This document shows, one piece after another, positions 22,293 to 62,443 of a stretch of 64,000 nucleotides of DNA. A program made the translations under genes and the position numbers. The stretch's first letter is position 1, and every line of letters starts with the position of its first letter. The notes beneath the pieces are model-generated. The model was not told the DNA's origin. It saw only the letters and a program-made list of their open reading frames with translations, and ran no database searches. The DNA comes from Candidatus Aenigmatarchaeota archaeon. GTDB lineage: Archaea; Aenigmatarchaeota; Aenigmatarchaeia; PWEA01. Where the stretch lies: NCBI GenBank assembly GCA_046539325.1, contig JBKHHD010000002.1, positions 32,001-96,000 on the forward strand, read 5' to 3'.

Positions 22293-22435
22293 CGTGCCGG
22301 CGTAGTTGAGCCTTGGACGTTCTGACGTCCAGCGATGACCAAAATTCCAGGCACGAACAAATGATGAGGAAGGGAGTTCAATCTCTTCTGATGTAGGAAA
22401 CCCGAGAATGAAACCGAGAGGTTTCAGTAGCCAAA
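22293..22435 (+). ncRNA. Pre-rRNA leader with K-turn/C-D motifs and BHB processing stem
   Basis: ATGATGA(22361-67)...CTGA(22388-91); TTGA...GATGAC. AGCC-AAA (22429-35) pairs with GGCT-AAA (24778-84) around the 16S. Confidence 0.7.
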
Positions 22436-23905: not shown

Positions 23906-24719
23906 AAATTAATTGCGACCTCGGACCGAAAGGTTCGAGAAAACCCGGCTGTATGCTGGAAACTCCACTCATACCAGGCTGCCGGAATTGTCCTAAGCTT
24001 TTTATCAAAAGCACGGGCAATGTAAGGTAGAGAGGTCTGGTCGTTGTGGACAATCAGCAGGGAAGCTCACTACTCTGACCTGAAAAGGTGAGGTATAGCC
24101 CCTCAGAGACTGCACGCCGGCCCCTAACGGAGCTGATTGGATGTCACAAAGCTACCTCAAGGGAATACTTCACGATGCCACGGAAAGGAAGTACACCTAC
24201 CGAATTTCACAAAAGAACAAAGATTTCATTGAAAAGCTGGCCGAAATGATTCGAGATCTGGGCAAAAAAGCCTGGATTTAAGAAGAAGGCAACCGAGGAA
24301 TATACGTAGTGGAATTTAGTAAGAGTGGTCTCAAAAAGCAAGAAATCGAAACAAGACAAGAAAAAAGAGACTATATCCGTGGCTACTTCGACGCTGAAGG
24401 AAGCGTTCCAAGGAGTCCTGAAGTGCGACCTTACATTTACTTCGCACAACAGGACAAAAAAGACCTAAAGAAAGTGAAGAAATTCATTGAGGAGTTTTAA
24501 ATTGAAACAGGCAAACTCCACAGACCCAGTAAGGAGTCTGATCCAGATTACTGGAGATTTTACATCTCCACAAAGGATCACAAAAAATTTGCCAGAGAAA
24601 TAGGCTCTTGGCATCCAAAGAAAAATCAGCTGCTGAGGGAGATGAGACAGTCCACGCCTCGATGCGAGTCGGGGTGACACTTTCAAAGTGTCCGAACACC
24701 ATTATGGTGTGAGCATGTG
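23906..24719 (+). mobile_element. Group I intron at 16S position 1498 (E. coli numbering)
   Basis: Exon ends in U and intron ends in G. P1 GUCGU/GCGAC with a U.G pair. Core elements: P TATGCTGGAAA, Q AATCAGCAG, R TCAGAGACTG, S GAGACAGTCC. Confidence 0.92.
24141..24677 (+). pseudogene. Intron-encoded LAGLIDADG homing endonuclease with two in-frame stops
   Basis: YLKGILHDA and YIRGYFDAEG motifs; TAA at 24279-81 and 24498-500 in an otherwise continuous frame. Confidence 0.85.
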
Positions 24720-24760
<41 letters not shown>

Positions 24761-24809
24761 AATTCATACCAACTACAGGCTAAAATTTCGGGTTTCCTAA
24801 AGAACATAC

Positions 24810-25018
24810 GGGCCCGTGGTCTAATGGCAATGCAGAACCGTGTTCCGATTTACGGTTTGCACCGGAATGACGTCGCCCTTGCAAGGCGAAGACTGTGGGT
24901 TCAAAAGAGACCACTTTGGAATGAAAACACTTTACTGAAAACGGAGTTTTCGTAAAGATCCAAGCTTCGTTTGAAATATTTTCCAAAGGGTTTTCTGGAA
25001 TTCCCACCGGGTCCACCA
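24810..25018 (+). tRNA. tRNA-Ala(TGC) with two non-canonical introns (21/22: 24830-24867; 59/60: 24906-25001), encoded CCA
   Basis: GGGCCCG/CGGGTCC acceptor; TCGCC-CTTGCAA-GGCGA. BHB-like junctions (TTCA/TGGA with AAA and ATT bulges) restore TTCAAAT. Confidence 0.88.
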
Positions 25019-25210
25019 GTACTGTTCGCGATTTTAGAAAGTTTTAAATAACTTCACTGTTACAGGACTTTTGAACCTGATACAGGCCTGATAAGATGAC
25101 TGGAAAGTAAGACTTGAAGGATTAGTTGCTTACTTCAGTCTGTTCTTTTTCGTTTTGTTGTATAGTTTTAATGTGCAGCTCTCTACCGCAGGTAGAGGGT
25201 GAAGAGTGAT

Positions 25211-25290
25211 AAGGGACGATGAATTGAGTTTTGTGAACACCCTTTGATCCCGAGAGGGAGATGATAGTAAGACGATCACAAGAGTCCCTT
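25211..25290 (+). ncRNA. Two-guide box C/D sRNA in the 16S-23S spacer, predicted targets 23S U2552 and U1920
   Basis: AAGGGAC/GTCCCTT terminal stem; C ATGAATT, D' TTGA, C' ATGATAG, D AAGA. Guides are complementary over 11 nt to 28002-28012 and 27367-27377. Confidence 0.8.
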
Positions 25291-25391
25291 GGATGAGCTG
25301 TTATACGTCAAGTCTTGGAAACTTATGTTTCCAGTTTGAAATCCGAGAGGATTTCAAGACCCACCAGCCAACTAGGCTGGAATGGGTCTAT

Positions 25392-41047: not shown

Positions 41048-41189
41048 GCCGGGGTAGCGAAGCCAGGTCCACCGCGCCAGCTTGGAGCTTTCGACTGAAA
41101 AGCTGGTGGGCGTCAAGGGGCCAAAGGACGTAGTCGAAGACTACGTCGTTCCAACGAAGCCCGCGTGGGTTCAAATCCCACCCCCGGCG
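41048..41189 (+). tRNA. tRNA-Ser(GGA) with introns at 37/38 (41088-41100) and in the variable arm (about 41117-41158)
   Basis: GCCGGGG/CCCCGGC acceptor; CCAGC-TTGGAG|A-GCTGG; BHB TTGG/CTGA. Spliced variable arm GGGC-GTCAA-GCCC. Confidence 0.88.
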
Positions 41190-57169: not shown

Positions 57170-57652
57170 ATGGGGGATCCAAAGAAACAGAGAAAGAAGT
57201 ATGAGAAGCCTCTTATACCCTGGGACGAGAGAAGAATAGAGAACGACAAGGATATTATGAAGAACTACGGACTGAAAAGAAAGGAAGAGATACTCAAGAT
57301 GGAAAGCTTTTTGAGAAAGCTGAGAAGGAGAGCAAGGGATGCTGCCGCAGGATCCTCCGAGAAGGAGAGAAATGAACTGCTTCAAAGGTGTAGGAACATC
57401 GGACTCATTGGCGAAGACGATGATGTTGGACAGATCCTGCGAATCGAGCTGAAGGACGTACTTGAAAGAAGGCTTCAGACGCTTGTCGCAAAGATAGATG
57501 GCGTAAGAAGTCCTGGGCACGCAAGGCAGCTTCTGACACATGGCCATGTAAAAGTAGACGAAAAGGTAATGACTTCGTCTTCGTTCTTCGTTCCAAAGGA
57601 TCTCGAGGACAAAATATCCGTAGATAAAAAGGCACTGGTGATGGACGAATGA
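57170..57652 (+). CDS. rps4: 30S protein uS4
   Basis: MGDPKK, YGLK.K.E, LERRLQT, ARQL..HGH. Confidence 0.96.
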
Positions 57653-58035
57653 GTCAGAGAAAAGGTCTAGCAAGAATACACTCGTCCGAGAACAACACTA
57701 TCATACATATAACTGATATGAGCGGCGCAGAAACTATAAGCAGATACTCTGGTGGAATGGCTGTGGATCAGGACAGGGACAAAGGCGAGCCGTTTGCTGC
57801 TATGCAAGCAGCAAAGAAGGCAGCCAAAGAGGCAAAGGAAAAGGGAATTGACAAGGTAGATATAAAGGTAAGAGCTCCAGGCGGACACGGCTCAAAGAGC
57901 CCAGGTCCGGGAGCACAGCCTGCTATCCGTGCTATAGCCAGAGCCGGAATGAAAATAGGCAAGATTGAAGATATAACTCCAGTGCCACATGATTCAACGA
58001 GAAGGCCTGGAGGCAAAAGAGGAAAGAGGGTCTGA
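57649..58035 (+). CDS. rps11: 30S protein uS11
   Basis: [27 protein letters not shown]. Confidence 0.96.
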
Positions 58036-58037
58036 TT

Positions 58038-58820
58038 ATGGAATTTGAAAAGATTGAGGAGGACGACAAGAAGCTTAAATTTGTTACAAAGGATACAAAT
58101 CCAGCTATGATGAACGCTTTGAGAAGGATCTCGATGAACTACATTCCTGTGCTTGCAATAGAGGACGTCGGAGTAAAGGAAAACAGTTCGCCGATATTCG
58201 ACGAAGTTATAGCCCAGAGGCTGGGGCAGGTACCGCTTGTCTTTGATCCAGACAAGTTTACGTTGAAGGGAGAATGCGACTGTGAAGACGGCTGTCCTAA
58301 CTGTGAGGTTGACTTCACGTTTGAAGGCGAAGGACTTGGAAGGCTTTACTCGAAGGACCTCGTCTGTGAGACGGGCGATATCGAGGTACTATATGACGAG
58401 ATACCTATAACAGAGATGGATGAAAATCAGAGGGTCGAGCTTGAAGCAACCGCAGTATTATCGAAGGGAAAAGATCACTCGAAACATCAGGCAGCTATTT
58501 CCTCGTACCAGTACTACCCTATAATCGATATAGACAACGATGAGCTCACGAAAGAAGAAAAGGGTCGCTGCGTCGAGGTGTGCCCAAAGGATGTTTTTGA
58601 GCTCGATGGCGGCGACCTGAAGGTTTCAGAGGAAAAGAAATGTACTGTATGCAAAGAATGCGTCAACGAAGTGGATACAGGCGTAGTAGTTACAGGCGAC
58701 GAGGAGAAGTTCATATTCACCATAGAGTCTACCTGTTCACTAAGCCCCCAAGAAATAATTGAGAAGGCCGCTGACATACTTGAGAAGAAGTCCGAGAAGG
58801 TAGTCGAAAAGTTAAGCTAG
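58038..58820 (+). CDS. rpoD: RNA polymerase subunit D (Rpo3) with ferredoxin-like domain
   Basis: NALRR, NSS..FDE..A.RLG, H.K, CVEVCP...CTVCKEC. Confidence 0.94.
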   Translation: MEFEKIEEDDKKLKFVTKDTNPAMMNALRRISMNYIPVLAIEDVGVKENSSPIFDEVIAQRLGQVPLVFDPDKFTLKGECDCEDGCPNCEVDFTFEGEGLGRLYSKDLVCETGDIEVLYDEIPITEMDENQRVELEATAVLSKGKDHSKHQAAISSYQYYPIIDIDNDELTKEEKGRCVEVCPKDVFELDGGDLKVSEEKKCTVCKECVNEVDTGVVVTGDEEKFIFTIESTCSLSPQEIIEKAADILEKKSEKVVEKLS

Positions 58821-58962
58821 CGGGGGTAACCAAGCGGTCAAGGTAAAGATACGACTAAAGGTGCAGGACTTAAGCTCTCAGCTTAAGTATTGAGGCCCAT
58901 TGGGCGATGATAAGAAATCCTGTGGCTTAGTGCCTTCGTCGGTTCGAATCCGGCCCCCCGCA
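58820..58962 (+). tRNA. tRNA-Leu(TAA) with introns at 21/22 (58842-58858) and 37/38 (58875-58916)
   Basis: GCGGGGG/CCCCCGC acceptor; BHBs GGTC/GACT and CTTA/TAAG; long variable arm. Confidence 0.9.
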
Positions 58963-58982
58963 TCAACAAAGAGGTTTTGGAT

Positions 58983-59336
58983 ATGGAAAAAACGAACCCG
59001 GTACTGAAGAAGACTGTAAGCAGGCTCGAGGAGAAAGGCAGAAAGGAAGAGTTAGATTTATGGAAGGATCTCGCCAAGAGGCTGAAGAAGCCAAGAAGGA
59101 ACAAAAGTTCGGTAAATATCTCAAAGATAAACAGACATGCAAAGGAAGGCGAAACTGTAGTCGTTCCAGGAAAAGTAACAGGCTACGGTAGCTTGGATAA
59201 GGATGTGGACGTTGCTGCATTTGATTTTTCAAAAAGCGCAAAGGAGAAGGTGGAGGAAGGGGGCAAGGTTATGAGTATACTGGATCTAGCTGAGGAAAAT
59301 CAGGAAGGCGAAAACGTAAGGATAATGGAGGGTTAA
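58983..59336 (+). CDS. rpl18e: 50S protein eL18
   Basis: KTNP, W..LA..L, VN.SKI.R, VVPGKV.G.G. Confidence 0.94.
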   Translation: MEKTNPVLKKTVSRLEEKGRKEELDLWKDLAKRLKKPRRNKSSVNISKINRHAKEGETVVVPGKVTGYGSLDKDVDVAAFDFSKSAKEKVEEGGKVMSILDLAEENQEGENVRIMEG

Positions 59337-59337
59337 A

Positions 59338-59736
59338 ATGATCGTTGATGCAGAAAACCAGGTTATGGGGAGACTATCTTCGGAAGTAGCTTCGTTGTTG
59401 CTTGATGGGAAGGAAGTCAAGGTTATCAACTCAGAGAAGGCAATCAAAACTGGCAAGCCTGAGGATACCGTAAAGAAATACCTTAAAAAGAAAAGTATCG
59501 GCGATCCGAGACACGGACCATATTCCTCGCTAAGGCCGGAAAACATACTCAGGGACTCGATAAAGGGAATGCTGCCCACGGAAAAGGAAATAGGAAGGCA
59601 GGCTCTTAAGAGATTGGTAATAGTTCAGGGGAACAGTGGTGAGGAAGGAAAAGCTATCTCAAAGAGCGCCGAGGATCTGACAACAAATTATATAACTCTT
59701 GAAGAGTTATCAGAAAGGATAGGTGGAAAACAATGA
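59338..59736 (+). CDS. rpl13: 50S protein uL13
   Basis: IVDA...GRL.S.VA, GP, GMLP. Confidence 0.94.
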   Translation: MIVDAENQVMGRLSSEVASLLLDGKEVKVINSEKAIKTGKPEDTVKKYLKKKSIGDPRHGPYSSLRPENILRDSIKGMLPTEKEIGRQALKRLVIVQGNSGEEGKAISKSAEDLTTNYITLEELSERIGGKQ

Positions 59737-60134
59737 CGATAAACGCTGTAGGTAAAAGAAAGGAAGCCAGGGCACAGGCAAAGGTCACAGAAGGAAGCGG
59801 AAATATAAGGATAAACTCAAGGCCTATCGAAAGCTTCAGCGATGAGATGTTCAGACTAATGATAAAGGAACCGCTGAAACTTGCAGAGGACAGAACAGAA
59901 GATGTAGATATAGATGTTGATGTAAACGGTGGAGGCAAAATGGGACAGGCAGAGGCTGTAAGACAGGCCATAGCTAAAGGACTTGTCGAGTTTACGGGAG
60001 ATGAAAAGCTTGAGAAGAAGTTCGAAAACTACGACAGATACCTGCTTGTAAGGGACTCTCGCACGGCCGAACCACACAAACCTTCGGTCTCTTCAAAGGG
60101 AGCCAGAAAGCACAAACAGAGGAGCAAGAGGTGA
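59733..60134 (+). CDS. rps9: 30S protein uS9
   Basis: GKRK.A.A, GGG.MGQAEA.R, YDR.LLV.D.R, GAR...Q.S.R. Confidence 0.95.
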   Translation: MTINAVGKRKEARAQAKVTEGSGNIRINSRPIESFSDEMFRLMIKEPLKLAEDRTEDVDIDVDVNGGGKMGQAEAVRQAIAKGLVEFTGDEKLEKKFENYDRYLLVRDSRTAEPHKPSVSSKGARKHKQRSKR

Positions 60135-60138
60135 CAAG

Positions 60139-60330
60139 ATGCTGATACCTGTAAGGTGTATAAGTTGCGGCAAGCCGGTAGGCCATCTATGGGAGGAGTT
60201 CAAAGAAAGAGAAGGAGAGGAAGACACGAAGGAAGTTCTTGACGACCTCGGCCTCGAGAGGTACTGCTGCAGAAGCCTTTTCATAACACACACAGATTTA
60301 GCTGGAAAGGCATCAAAGTTCAAGAAGTAG
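60139..60330 (+). CDS. rpoN: RNA polymerase subunit N (Rpo10)
   Basis: MLIPVRCISCG, LDDLG..RYCCR. Confidence 0.96.
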   Translation: MLIPVRCISCGKPVGHLWEEFKEREGEEDTKEVLDDLGLERYCCRSLFITHTDLAGKASKFKK

Positions 60331-60378
60331 CGCTAATATTTATTTATAATAAGTACAAGACTATTAGTGGTGACTATA

Positions 60379-61773
60379 TTGAAGAAGATTTTACCCCTCC
60401 TGTCGGCATTCATTCTATTGTCGATCTCAATGCCTACAGCAGCTGCACACCTGGAAGTAAGTTTCGAGGAGGAGGGTTCCTGTAAGATTTTGCCGCATAC
60501 ATACGAGATAAATATAACAAACACACACGATTCAGAGGATCTGATCCGGCTTAGCAGACCACGCGAGTTCTCAAGATGGATGTCTCTGTCGAGAAGTATT
60601 ATGAGGATACAGGCAGGCGAGACCGAAACAACTGAGTTAACTATTGAAGCTCCGAGAAACGTTGAACTTGGCGAATACCAGACTAACTTTTCTATATTTT
60701 CCGAGGACTACGAAGATGTTTCAACAACCGGAGAACTTTGCTTCATAGTTCTTAGAGACTATTCAATGATCGTCAGGGACTTTGCCGTAGACAAAGAGGA
60801 ATACGGACCCATGGACCAGGTTAACTTCTCTGTAACAGTTGAGAACGACGGTACAAAGGACTTCGACGACGGCGAGTTCAGAATAGAAGTAACTAAGGAA
60901 GGTGAGCAAATTGCAACTGATCTCGAGAAGTTCGAACTGGAAACAGGGAAAGGTAAAACTGTGGCCAGTTCAATAAACCTCAAGGAACATCAGGCACCAG
61001 GAACCTACGACGTAATGTACGAGGTAAGAGGTGCTGGCCACAAGATACAGTCCGGTGAAGCTAGCTTTGAAGTAATGGAGATGGCCAACTACGAGATAAG
61101 CGAAGAGTCGGATGGAAGATACATCATAAGAACAAACACAATAAATGCAGAAAACAGAGGCAATATATTAGAACAAAAGGAAATAAATAGAACTGCAGTA
61201 TTTCCTTTATCGCTGCTGACCACGGCCGAGGGGGCAGATGTGACCCGGGAAGGTCTCCATACAGTTTACAGCTGGAACATTGAACTTGAACCAGGTCAGT
61301 CCACACAGCTAAGTTATCAGATAAACTACTGGCCTCTGTACATTCTAATAATACTTCTGGCTCTCATAGCGTTCAGGCTGTTCCTTTACATGAAAGCACC
61401 TGTCGTGAAGAAGGAGGTAGTCAAAAGCGAAATATCCGAAGACAAAAGGGTCCTCACCATATCGCTTCACGTCAAAAACCGGTTCTTCGGAAAAGCCAAA
61501 AACGTTATACTGGAGGACTCTGTGCTTTCCGTGACAAGAGTTCTGGACGAGTTCGATACGGTCAAACCAAACATTGAAAGGAAGGACGACGAAACAACGC
61601 TCAGGTGGAAGCTTGGTGAGATGTTGGCCGGAGACGATAGAGTTATACATTACAAGGTCAAAGTTCTTGTTGAATCCGTTGATGAGCTTGTCTTTCCTCC
61701 AGCCAAGGTAAGGGGTGCAGTAGGAAAGAGAACTTTCGAAAGATCTTCTTCCAAGGTAAAGCTTGGTGTTTAA
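60379..61773 (+). CDS. Secreted Ig/CARDB-like surface protein with TM and cytoplasmic beta domain
   Basis: Signal peptide, 'VENDG', 'PGTY.V', TM 'WPLYILIILLALIAF', C-terminal DUF11-like fold. Confidence 0.6.
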   Translation: MKKILPLLSAFILLSISMPTAAAHLEVSFEEEGSCKILPHTYEINITNTHDSEDLIRLSRPREFSRWMSLSRSIMRIQAGETETTELTIEAPRNVELGEYQTNFSIFSEDYEDVSTTGELCFIVLRDYSMIVRDFAVDKEEYGPMDQVNFSVTVENDGTKDFDDGEFRIEVTKEGEQIATDLEKFELETGKGKTVASSINLKEHQAPGTYDVMYEVRGAGHKIQSGEASFEVMEMANYEISEESDGRYIIRTNTINAENRGNILEQKEINRTAVFPLSLLTTAEGADVTREGLHTVYSWNIELEPGQSTQLSYQINYWPLYILIILLALIAFRLFLYMKAPVVKKEVVKSEISEDKRVLTISLHVKNRFFGKAKNVILEDSVLSVTRVLDEFDTVKPNIERKDDETTLRWKLGEMLAGDDRVIHYKVKVLVESVDELVFPPAKVRGAVGKRTFERSSSKVKLGV

Positions 61774-62323: not shown

Positions 62324-62443
62324 GGGTCCGTAGCTCAGCCTGGCAGAGCACTGGGCTTTTAACTTAATATGTTAAAAGAGCTAGACGTTATGTCGATGAT
62401 GAAAGAAACCCAGGAGTCGCGGGTTCAAATCCCGTCGGACCCA
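62324..62443 (+). tRNA. tRNA-Lys(TTT) with 37/38 intron (62362-62407)
   Basis: GGGTCCG/CGGACCC acceptor; CTGGG-CTTTTA|A-CCCAG; BHB CTTT/AAAG. Confidence 0.92.

Follow-up and report, generated by a model that had tools for sequence, protein, structure and literature searches.

The stretch of DNA analysed here (the window) comprises 64,000 nucleotides (nt) of contig JBKHHD010000002.1 from a Candidatus Aenigmatarchaeota archaeon. Its genome, G000, has a size of 715 kb in 10 contigs and belongs to the class Aenigmatarchaeia (DPANN). The window holds a tRNA-Leu(UAA) gene with two introns. The second intron lies at the canonical position between G37 and A38 (37/38) and contains a segment that is antisense to the anticodon loop of its own tRNA, followed by two motifs of the box C/D type. 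An earlier note, made from the sequence alone, had read this arrangement as a minimal, single-guide C/D RNA directing the 2'-O-methylation of the wobble nucleotide U34.

The tRNA-Leu(UAA) gene was missed by ARAGORN when run without introns, and the Rfam tRNA model stayed below threshold. With introns allowed, ARAGORN reported a tRNA at G000:C2:90820-90962, mis-typed as Leu(aag) and assigned just one intron, of 59 nt. The anatomy given here (Table 1) is that of a manual parse, in which the acceptor stem is GCGGGGG/CCCCCGC. The edges of intron 1 are uncertain by up to 3 nt because of a repeated GGT; its sequence, AAAGATACGACTAAAGGT, is retained among relatives from the genus. The length and the position of intron 2 agree with those of 31 orthologous or paralogous introns.

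In intron 2, the guide (AGCTTAAGT) lies directly upstream of a UUGA box, from which it is separated by a single spacer base. The fifth guide base upstream of the box (58885) pairs with U34, and the loop that joins the target to the guide has 3 nt. Seven of the nine guide pairs fall in exon sequence. Note that CTTAAG is palindromic, so that six of the nine pairs would equally follow from a direct copy of the loop. Downstream of the UUGA box we find a 4-bp stem and then the second motif, GAUGAUAA (GATGATAA as DNA). The two motifs are sequence variants of the D' and C' boxes, and with the stem that they flank they have the make-up of a kink-turn (K-turn). In other words, the guide, the D-like box, the hairpin, the C-like box and the fifth base opposite U34 are all present as the earlier note had described them. 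The intron carries one guide only, rather than one for C34 and one for U39, and it matches no Rfam family, even at E values up to 10.

Part of the intron also takes part in splicing. A canonical bulge-helix-bulge (BHB) can be drawn at the splice sites, with two 3-nt bulges (A36-G37-C and A-A-A38), a 4-bp central helix and an outer intron helix of just 2 bp. Since UAAG, the 3' strand of the central helix, overlaps the C'-like box, and since the anticodon loop cannot pair with the guide and with UAAG together, the folds for methylation and for splicing are mutually exclusive, as had been claimed before. For the naked RNA, the guide hairpin is computed to be the more stable fold (-15.9 kcal/mol, as compared with -9.7 kcal/mol when the BHB is formed), and the structure of minimum free energy (-20.6 kcal/mol) includes the guide hairpin.

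Conservation of the module in tRNA-Leu introns

The Leu gene was compared by BLAST with G000 and 60 relatives from the same genus, family, order and class. No selection for motifs was applied, and matches were obtained in 52 of the 61 genomes. A locus was kept if the match extended into the intron, which gave 32 sequences (16 of them fetched separately); loci in which only the 3' exon matched were left out (L016, L020, L021, L024, L025, L027, L029-L034, L042 and L044). One sequence, L013, is cut at the end of its contig. The remaining 31 complete introns comprise 23 from Leu(UAA) and eight from Leu(CAA) genes, the latter including a paralogue class that is present in G000 as well (Table 1).

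We see that all 31 complete introns have a guide upstream of an NNGA box, in the register that places N34 opposite the fifth base (D'+5). In 30 of them, 6-10 contiguous pairs extend from guide position 2; in the remaining one, L039, a mismatch at position 2 is followed by six pairs. The loop that joins target and guide measures 1-7 nt in 29 introns. The guide reads CTTAAGT in Leu(UAA) and CTTGAGT in Leu(CAA), that is, an A is replaced by a G opposite the change from U34 to C34. Because the loop sequence CTCAAG is not palindromic, the covariation is genuinely antisense and does not stem from a duplication of the loop. It was precisely an alignment of orthologous introns, searched for covariation between guide and anticodon at a fixed register, that the earlier note had proposed as a check on its reading, and the alignment supports that reading. 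Furthermore, a downstream box of the C' type (NNUGA) is found in 30 of the 31 introns. The central helix of the BHB is complete (4/4) in 20 introns and has three of its four pairs in the other 11. Its 3' strand, TAAG in Leu(UAA) and TGAG in Leu(CAA), covaries with the anticodon separately from the guide. When the intron of the window was shuffled by mononucleotides, 12 of 1,000,000 shuffles gave an in-register complementarity of 7 nt or more, with N+NYGA after it and an RTGA further downstream.

The Leu(UAA) module is also found in public genomes. An exact-pattern scan of public genomes, with one genome per prokaryotic species, returned at least 119 stretches. Among the 80 matches listed, 39 stand in a tRNA-Leu context, all of them in records titled archaeal; according to the record titles, these are mostly Aenigmatarchaeota, together with Woesearchaeota, Pacearchaeota, Nanohaloarchaea/Nanohalarchaeota, Nanoarchaeia and one "Methanosarcinales" bin. 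The other 41 of the listed matches have no tRNA-Leu context, most being in records titled bacterial and a few in archaeal ones.

To the BLAST set we added these 39 introns, for which only the downstream features are informative because the guide, the spacing and the YGA were imposed by the pattern. Among the resulting 63 unique introns, 62 have the NNUGA motif. The D' box occurs as TTGA, ATGA, CTGA, TCGA or GTGA. The stem between the boxes varies yet stays paired in relatives (GGAAC/GTTCC, GTCC/GGAC, GCAAG/CTTGC, GAAAC../..GTTTC and others), and in a few introns a loop of 5-8 nt takes its place, as in ordinary archaeal K-loops. In the consensus box C/D K-turn, the pairs are C1-G6 and U2-U5. 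Position 1 of the D' box and position 6 of the C' box (D1:C6) form a standard pair in 51 of the 61 scorable introns (U-A 39, C-G 5, A-U 4, U-G 2 and G-C 1); under permutation the mean was 39.2, and none of 20,000 permutations reached 51. Boxes with UCGA mostly (3/4) have a G at C' position 5. The D1:C6 pattern is that of box C/D K-turns, and it supports the non-canonical stem of the K-turn.

The genome encodes fibrillarin (Pfam, E = 3.6e-82), Nop5 (E = 2.3e-60) and L7Ae (E = 2.4e-31). Taken with the fixed register and the D1:C6 covariation, these genes speak for the earlier claim of a minimal one-K-turn guide aimed at its own U34. For positions 57500-60500 of the window no RNA sequencing run was listed, only four DNA runs from a single study, two of which may be from the source sample.

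Related introns and a C/D guide in the rRNA operon

The other intron-containing tRNAs of G000 were read and then checked with a script, the module being defined as guide-N-UUGA-stem-GAUGA. Outside the window, five further 37/38 introns carry it, namely those of elongator Met, Trp, Leu(CAA), Thr(UGU) and Tyr(GUA). The guides for N34 and those for N39 sit in different tRNAs, that is, in Leu, Met, Trp and Lys on the one hand and in Thr and Tyr on the other. For Met, 13 of the 61 genomes gave a match; the 13 distinct sequences all show (A/G)TGAGC-N-TTGA (AAGA in one), and in all 12 complete orthologues RATGA (RAUGA in the RNA) follows after a stem or loop, L062 being cut at the end of its contig. 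The Thr(UGU) gene was mis-typed by ARAGORN as tRNA-Arg(gcg). All nine recovered Thr(UGU) genes conform to the module, and one order-level relative (L079) compensates a C39 by a change of A to G in the guide.

Within the window, the intron of the tRNA-Lys(UUU) gene has the guide GTTAAAAG at 62371-78, in which 62376 pairs with U34 (62358), and the C' box GAUGAUGA at 62395-62402. Among 11 distinct Lys(UUU) introns, five have a canonical NYGA box and a K-turn, three (G000 included) have CUAG, two are unclear and one is an unrelated intron. In the relatives L211, L212, L217, L220 and L222, CCGA, TTGA or CTGA precedes a stem and RAUGA, with the register unchanged. We did not find a clean module in four Lys(CUU) introns. 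The 37/38 intron of tRNA-Ser(GGA) in the window (41088-41100) has 13 nt and, inspected by eye, consists of the BHB only, with neither a hairpin nor a C box. Thus, of the earlier suggestion that the same architecture recurs in the Lys and Ser introns, the first half stands in part and the second is not supported, while the wider notion of a recurring family gains the Met, Trp, Thr and Tyr introns. According to ARAGORN, Leu(GAG) and initiator Met have no intron in this genome.

Two side observations concern the introns of G000. By eye, the Trp intron (82 nt) has a further complementarity, GGATGT against ACATCC, to its last two bases and A38-C41, in the register that puts U39 at position 5. This GGATGT is followed by a TGGC/GCCA hairpin instead of a GA box, and it may be a decayed second guide. 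In addition, the non-canonical introns of the tRNA genes at C1:45748-45870, C2:6816-6987, C2:111178-111305, C6:2890-3037, C6:3691-3868, C6:4489-4646 and C8:7380-7514 have near-identical blocks in common, such as ..CCTTTT(T)..(A)AAACGTTC[AG]CGAAAA.. and AACCTTTTCCGCTGACGCGCAAAACGTTCACGAAAAG, which suggests a repeated, perhaps mobile, intron family. Standard finders mis-type these genes, with calls such as "tRNA-Stop(tta)" and "Phe(aaa)".

A complete C/D small RNA (sRNA) with two K-turns lies in the 16S-23S spacer of the window. It is composed of a terminal stem (GGGAC/GTCCC), a C box (GAUGA), a D' box (UUGA), an internal stem-loop (UCCC-GAGA-GGGA), a C' box (GAUGAUA) and a D box (AAGA). Its D' guide (25233-42) matches nt 2617-2626 of the 23S rRNA (local numbering) at 10/10 positions, with position 5 on the U (local 2620) of the A-loop GGGUGUUCAC. 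We take this nucleotide to be E. coli U2552, a universally conserved site of 2'-O-methylation. The D guide (25268-78) matches 23S local nt 1981-1991 at 11/11 positions. The D' guide, the D' box, the internal stem-loop and the C' box are conserved, with compensatory changes in the stem, in nine loci (G000 included), and the terminal stems pair in the three relatives inspected by eye. No Rfam family matches the sRNA, even at E values up to 10. Since its internal UUGA-stem-GAUGAUA has the same form as the boxes of the introns, the box variants of the introns are ones that this lineage really uses.

The spacer itself (23951-25386) has a length of about 1.4 kb, and neither ARAGORN, when run without introns, nor Rfam called a tRNA there. 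Between tRNA-His and the 16S gene, in the 5' leader of the operon (22313-22391, plus strand), there are two more box-like arrangements. In the first, CTGA (22322-25) is followed by an 8-nt loop and GATGA (22334-38), with an 8-nt match to the 23S rRNA upstream; in the second, a consensus AUGAUGA (22361-67) is followed 20 nt downstream by CUGA (22388-91).

Genome-wide scans gave little beyond these loci. When the genome was scanned loosely for a target, a guide, NYGA and RTGA, 65 matches were obtained as compared with 36-52 in shuffled sequences; of these, only the introns of Leu(UAA), Leu(CAA) and Met were convincing. Complements of 10 nt to the rRNA followed by N+NYGA, counted outside the rRNA operon, gave no signal (233 as compared with 215 for a reversed-sequence decoy). 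The strict two-guide pattern (RTGATGA ... CTGA) had no match in the genome; a relaxed one had 19, with 2-7 in shuffles, and these resemble purine-rich coding sequence. Finally, a scan for NYGA-stem-NNUGA with D1:C6 pairing showed no enrichment (99 as compared with 100-134 in shuffles), and it pointed to the spacer sRNA. The absence of other guides does not follow from these null results.

Table 1. Coordinates of the features discussed. Plain numbers are positions in the window, which belongs to G000; loci elsewhere in this genome are given by contig.
Feature	Position	Strand	Remarks
tRNA-Leu(UAA) gene, two introns	58820..58962	+	mature tRNA 83 nt; manual parse
Intron 1 (D-arm), 18 nt	~58845..58862	+	outside the guide module; manual parse
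Anticodon stem	58864-68 paired with 58918-22	+	manual parse
C32-G37	58869-74	+	A38 = 58917; manual parse
Intron 2, 42 nt, between G37 and A38	58875..58916	+	canonical 37/38 position; manual parse
Target strand: A31, C32, U33, U34 (58871), A35, A36, G37 and first two intron bases (CT)	58868..58876	+	exact complement of 58880-88
Guide, 9 nt	58880..58888	+	exact reverse complement of 58868-76
D'-type box UUGA	58890..58893	+	sequence read
C-stem hairpin	58895..58905	+	GCCC 58895-98, loop AUU, GGGC 58902-05; sequence read
C'-type box	58906..58913	+	GAU bulge, GA 58909-10, then UAA; A58912 pairs with U58890; ATGATAA = 58907-13
UAAG, 3' strand of the BHB central 4-bp helix	58911..58914	+	pairs 4/4 with C32-A35 (58869-72); overlaps the C' box
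tRNA-Lys(UUU) gene	62324-62443	+	37/38 intron 62362..62407
Two-K-turn C/D sRNA, 16S-23S spacer	25213-25288	+	both terminal C/D and internal C'/D' motifs
Elongator Met intron module	C3:32387-32516		position 5 opposite C34
Trp intron module	C1:116084-116240	-	position 5 opposite C34
Leu(CAA) intron module	C2:24664-24802		position 5 opposite C34
Thr(UGU) gene with intron module	C4:60220-60372	-	position 5 on U39; guide pairs with last two intron bases and A38-C43
Tyr(GUA) intron module	C3:60548-60691	-	C-box/guide/UUGA closed by GCACC/GGTGC stem; position 5 on C39

Possible mechanism and alternative explanations

We consider it likely that intron 2 acts as a minimal, intron-borne box C/D guide with a single K-turn, by which N34 is methylated before splicing. 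In the naked precursor, the 9-nt guide would fold back on the anticodon loop to give a hairpin with a 3-nt loop, and the two boxes, clamped by the GCCC/GGGC stem, would form a K-turn of the C'/D' type. L7Ae would bind to this K-turn, and Nop5 together with fibrillarin would methylate the 2'-OH of the wobble U34, which faces base 5 of the guide as counted upstream from UUGA. In this state, the guide hairpin would sequester C32-G37 and the K-turn would occupy bases that the BHB requires. Splicing could then take place only after release of the ribonucleoprotein (RNP) and refolding of the RNA, and therefore methylation would precede splicing. As for the ruler, the loop of the hairpin might stand in for the second K-turn; alternatively, a Nop5 dimer might be shared between two precursors.

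Several observations make methylation the preferred reading. Guide base 5 faces only position 34 or position 39, and in Haloferax and Pyrococcus both are methylated under the guidance of the intron of tRNA-Trp. Furthermore, the tRNAs that carry guides for position 34 include the four whose N34 is a target of C/D guides in Pyrococcus. Leu(GAG) and initiator Met have no intron in this genome, and the spacer sRNA, the internal motif of which has the form of the intron modules, serves as a positive control.

If intron 2 is a true C/D guide, it could still act only in trans. The excised and probably circularised intron would then build up as a small stable RNA and guide the modification of other pre-tRNA-Leu molecules or of mature tRNA-Leu, as has been reported for the tRNA-Trp intron of Haloferax. 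According to the portions of two reviews available to us, the RNP of the tRNA-Trp intron does act in trans (PMC4090602, PMC11408192), and with seven exonic guide pairs mature tRNA-Leu(UAA) could be bound as well. On the other hand, the guide in Leu(UAA) also pairs with the first two intron bases, and the guides for position 39 pair with two intron bases and 38-43; both point to an unspliced substrate. In addition, the joining loop is so short that an intramolecular hairpin is favoured both kinetically and thermodynamically. We thus favour action in cis on the same molecule, for which the tight hairpin speaks, and regard a guide that works only in trans as unlikely.

Several observations weigh against a one-K-turn guide for methylation. 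The presence of two box pairs is a defining feature of natural C/D sRNAs; we could see only one in the 42-nt intron, where inspection by eye found no terminal C/D motif (the second K-turn), nor was there a motif of the RUGA type in the flanking exons. The K-turn of Leu(UAA) is slightly irregular owing to an extra G58894 between UUGA and the 4-bp stem, which is unpaired or forms a G-G mismatch, whereas in most relatives the stem abuts UUGA. In the Lys(UUU) intron of G000, the D' position reads CUAG (62381-84) instead of NYGA. The relatives are not independent of each other, so that the counts for the Leu introns overstate the number of events, the register and spacing of the scan-derived introns were set beforehand, and the constant spacing of 1 nt could be a structural constraint between hairpin and K-turn. 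The earlier note had named introns that keep the hairpin and lose the boxes or the spacing as grounds for giving up its reading. The C' box is kept in all complete Leu introns of the BLAST set except one, L015 (G025:C1:99307-99406), a Leu(UAA) intron from a class-level relative, which retains ACTTAAGT-T-TCGA with no C' box of the UGA type downstream. The guide hairpin can therefore persist without an evident K-turn. Last, a fully single-site C/D complex of M. jannaschii was active in vitro and lost its site specificity, as far as the part of that study available to us goes (PMC1635284).

L015 and the in vitro loss of specificity would also fit a device for folding or quality control that involves no methylation. 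L7Ae would then mask the anticodon loop and delay or license splicing, with no role for fibrillarin; the mutual exclusion of the guide hairpin and the BHB, of which the hairpin is the more stable, agrees with this as well. However, such a device leaves unexplained why guide position 5 always faces N34 or N39, both methylated by C/D guides in archaeal tRNA-Trp, why the carriers of guides for position 34 include the four tRNAs guided at N34 in Pyrococcus, and why the box variants and the 1-nt spacer are identical to those of the rRNA-targeting sRNA of the same genome. We find this explanation quite improbable.

That the complementarity is a mere by-product, either of a duplicated palindromic loop or of BHB pairing, with box motifs that arose by chance, is hardly credible: the self-complementarity of CTTAAG and the lack of enrichment in the box-plus-stem scan would agree with it, but the non-palindromic loops of Leu(CAA), Met, Trp and Lys(UUU) have antisense guides and not direct repeats, which together with the shuffle test and the D1:C6 covariation rules out chance or a palindrome as the origin, and the BHB is ruled out because its helix is formed by the separate, covarying 3'-terminal segment (TAAG/TGAG).

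A more far-reaching reading can be put forward only tentatively. DPANN archaea with reduced genomes may have moved the guides for tRNA methylation into the substrates themselves. Action in cis would then be obligatory, the closing loop would serve as the ruler for the +5 position instead of the second K-turn, and the BHB would stay locked until methylation of the ribose at the wobble position or at position 39 has taken place.

Relation to known systems and significance

For Pyrococcus, N34 has been described as the target of four C/D sRNAs, in Leu(CAA), Leu(UAA), Met and Trp, according to the part of the source available to us (PMC7994747). These separate-gene sRNAs share with the intron module the targets (the wobble ribose of UUR-reading Leu tRNAs and of elongator Met) and the enzyme system. 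They differ in that they have two box pairs and act in trans, whereas the Leu guide lies inside the intron of its own substrate.

In the euryarchaeal genera Haloferax and Pyrococcus, the methylation of C34 and U39 in tRNA-Trp (Cm34 and Um39) is guided by the intron of this tRNA, as stated in the passages seen of PMC4033218 and PMC4090602. Like this intron (sR50 in Pyrococcus), the Leu module has its guide in the 37/38 intron of the very tRNA that it targets, follows the +5 rule, uses boxes of the D type and is aimed at the wobble position; also, what we have of the reviews mentions a competition between guide pairing and the splicing motif. The tRNA-Trp intron is, however, described as a complete sRNA with two guides, while the Leu intron, at 42 nt, has one guide and a single C'/D'-type K-turn (guide-D'-stem-C'), lacks a terminal C/D motif and has its guide linked to the target by a loop of 3 nt. 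Put differently, the intron module is equivalent to one half of an sRNA (D'-guide/D'/C'), and a short loop connects the 5' end of its guide with the target.

The elongator tRNA-Met of Nanoarchaeum equitans has a 66-nt intron that was reported as a stable C/D-like RNA (Randau 2012, PMC3491384). By the description in the portion of the report available to us, it resembles the module in its DPANN host, its location in an intron, its one C-like and one D box and its GC hairpin. The same portion considers a possible role as a guide, names neither target nor register, and treats a single case, with no mention of Leu, Lys, Thr or Tyr introns. To judge from this description, it is probably the Met member of the family.

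Engineered half-mer or single-site RNAs, which serve in crystallography and enzymology, are made of one stem-closed K-turn and one guide. They have the topology of the intron module, but they are artificial. Half-mer C/D RNPs are known as crystallisation constructs, according to the section of PMC6239191 available to us. In our literature search, we were not able to find a description of a natural, conserved half-mer C/D RNA.

Outside the archaea, the product proposed for the intron guide is made on the same tRNAs by proteins alone and by an unrelated mechanism, namely by TrmL in bacteria (Cm34 and cmnm5Um34) and by Trm7-Trm734 in eukaryotes (Nm34, including ncm5Um34), as given in the part of PMC4033218 that we could consult.

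Two reviews, of 2014 and 2024, give tRNA-Trp as the sole case of an intron that guides the modification of its own tRNA, in so far as their available text covers it (PMC4090602, PMC11408192). An incomplete literature search, with supplements outside it, returned nothing on guides in the introns of archaeal tRNA-Leu, Lys, Thr or Tyr; nor did the same incomplete search return a description of a conserved one-K-turn guide that forms a hairpin with its own target, or of its spread among DPANN. The earlier statement that no such family had been described thus holds, as far as this search goes, for the Leu, Lys, Thr and Tyr introns, and needs to be qualified by the Met intron of N. equitans, known since 2012, and by the classical two-guide tRNA-Trp intron.

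If the methylation reading is right, self-guiding by introns would be general in a large uncultivated branch of the archaea and not confined to tRNA-Trp. Within the class to which the window belongs, seven tRNA species and two target positions are covered. The module gives a functional reason for the retention of 37/38 introns in these tRNAs, and it can assist annotation, as tRNA genes that bear it are missed or mis-typed by standard finders. Since in vitro work suggests that two box pairs are needed for specificity, a natural half-size C/D RNA offers a test system for the +5 ruler. Furthermore, it allows one to test the coupling of modification and splicing through mutually exclusive RNA folds. 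Should the more tentative reading of an obligatory lock in cis also be true, at least seven tRNAs of these archaea would have a built-in checkpoint that places modification before splicing, and the module would be a natural counter-example to the requirement of two box pairs for the site specificity of C/D RNPs.

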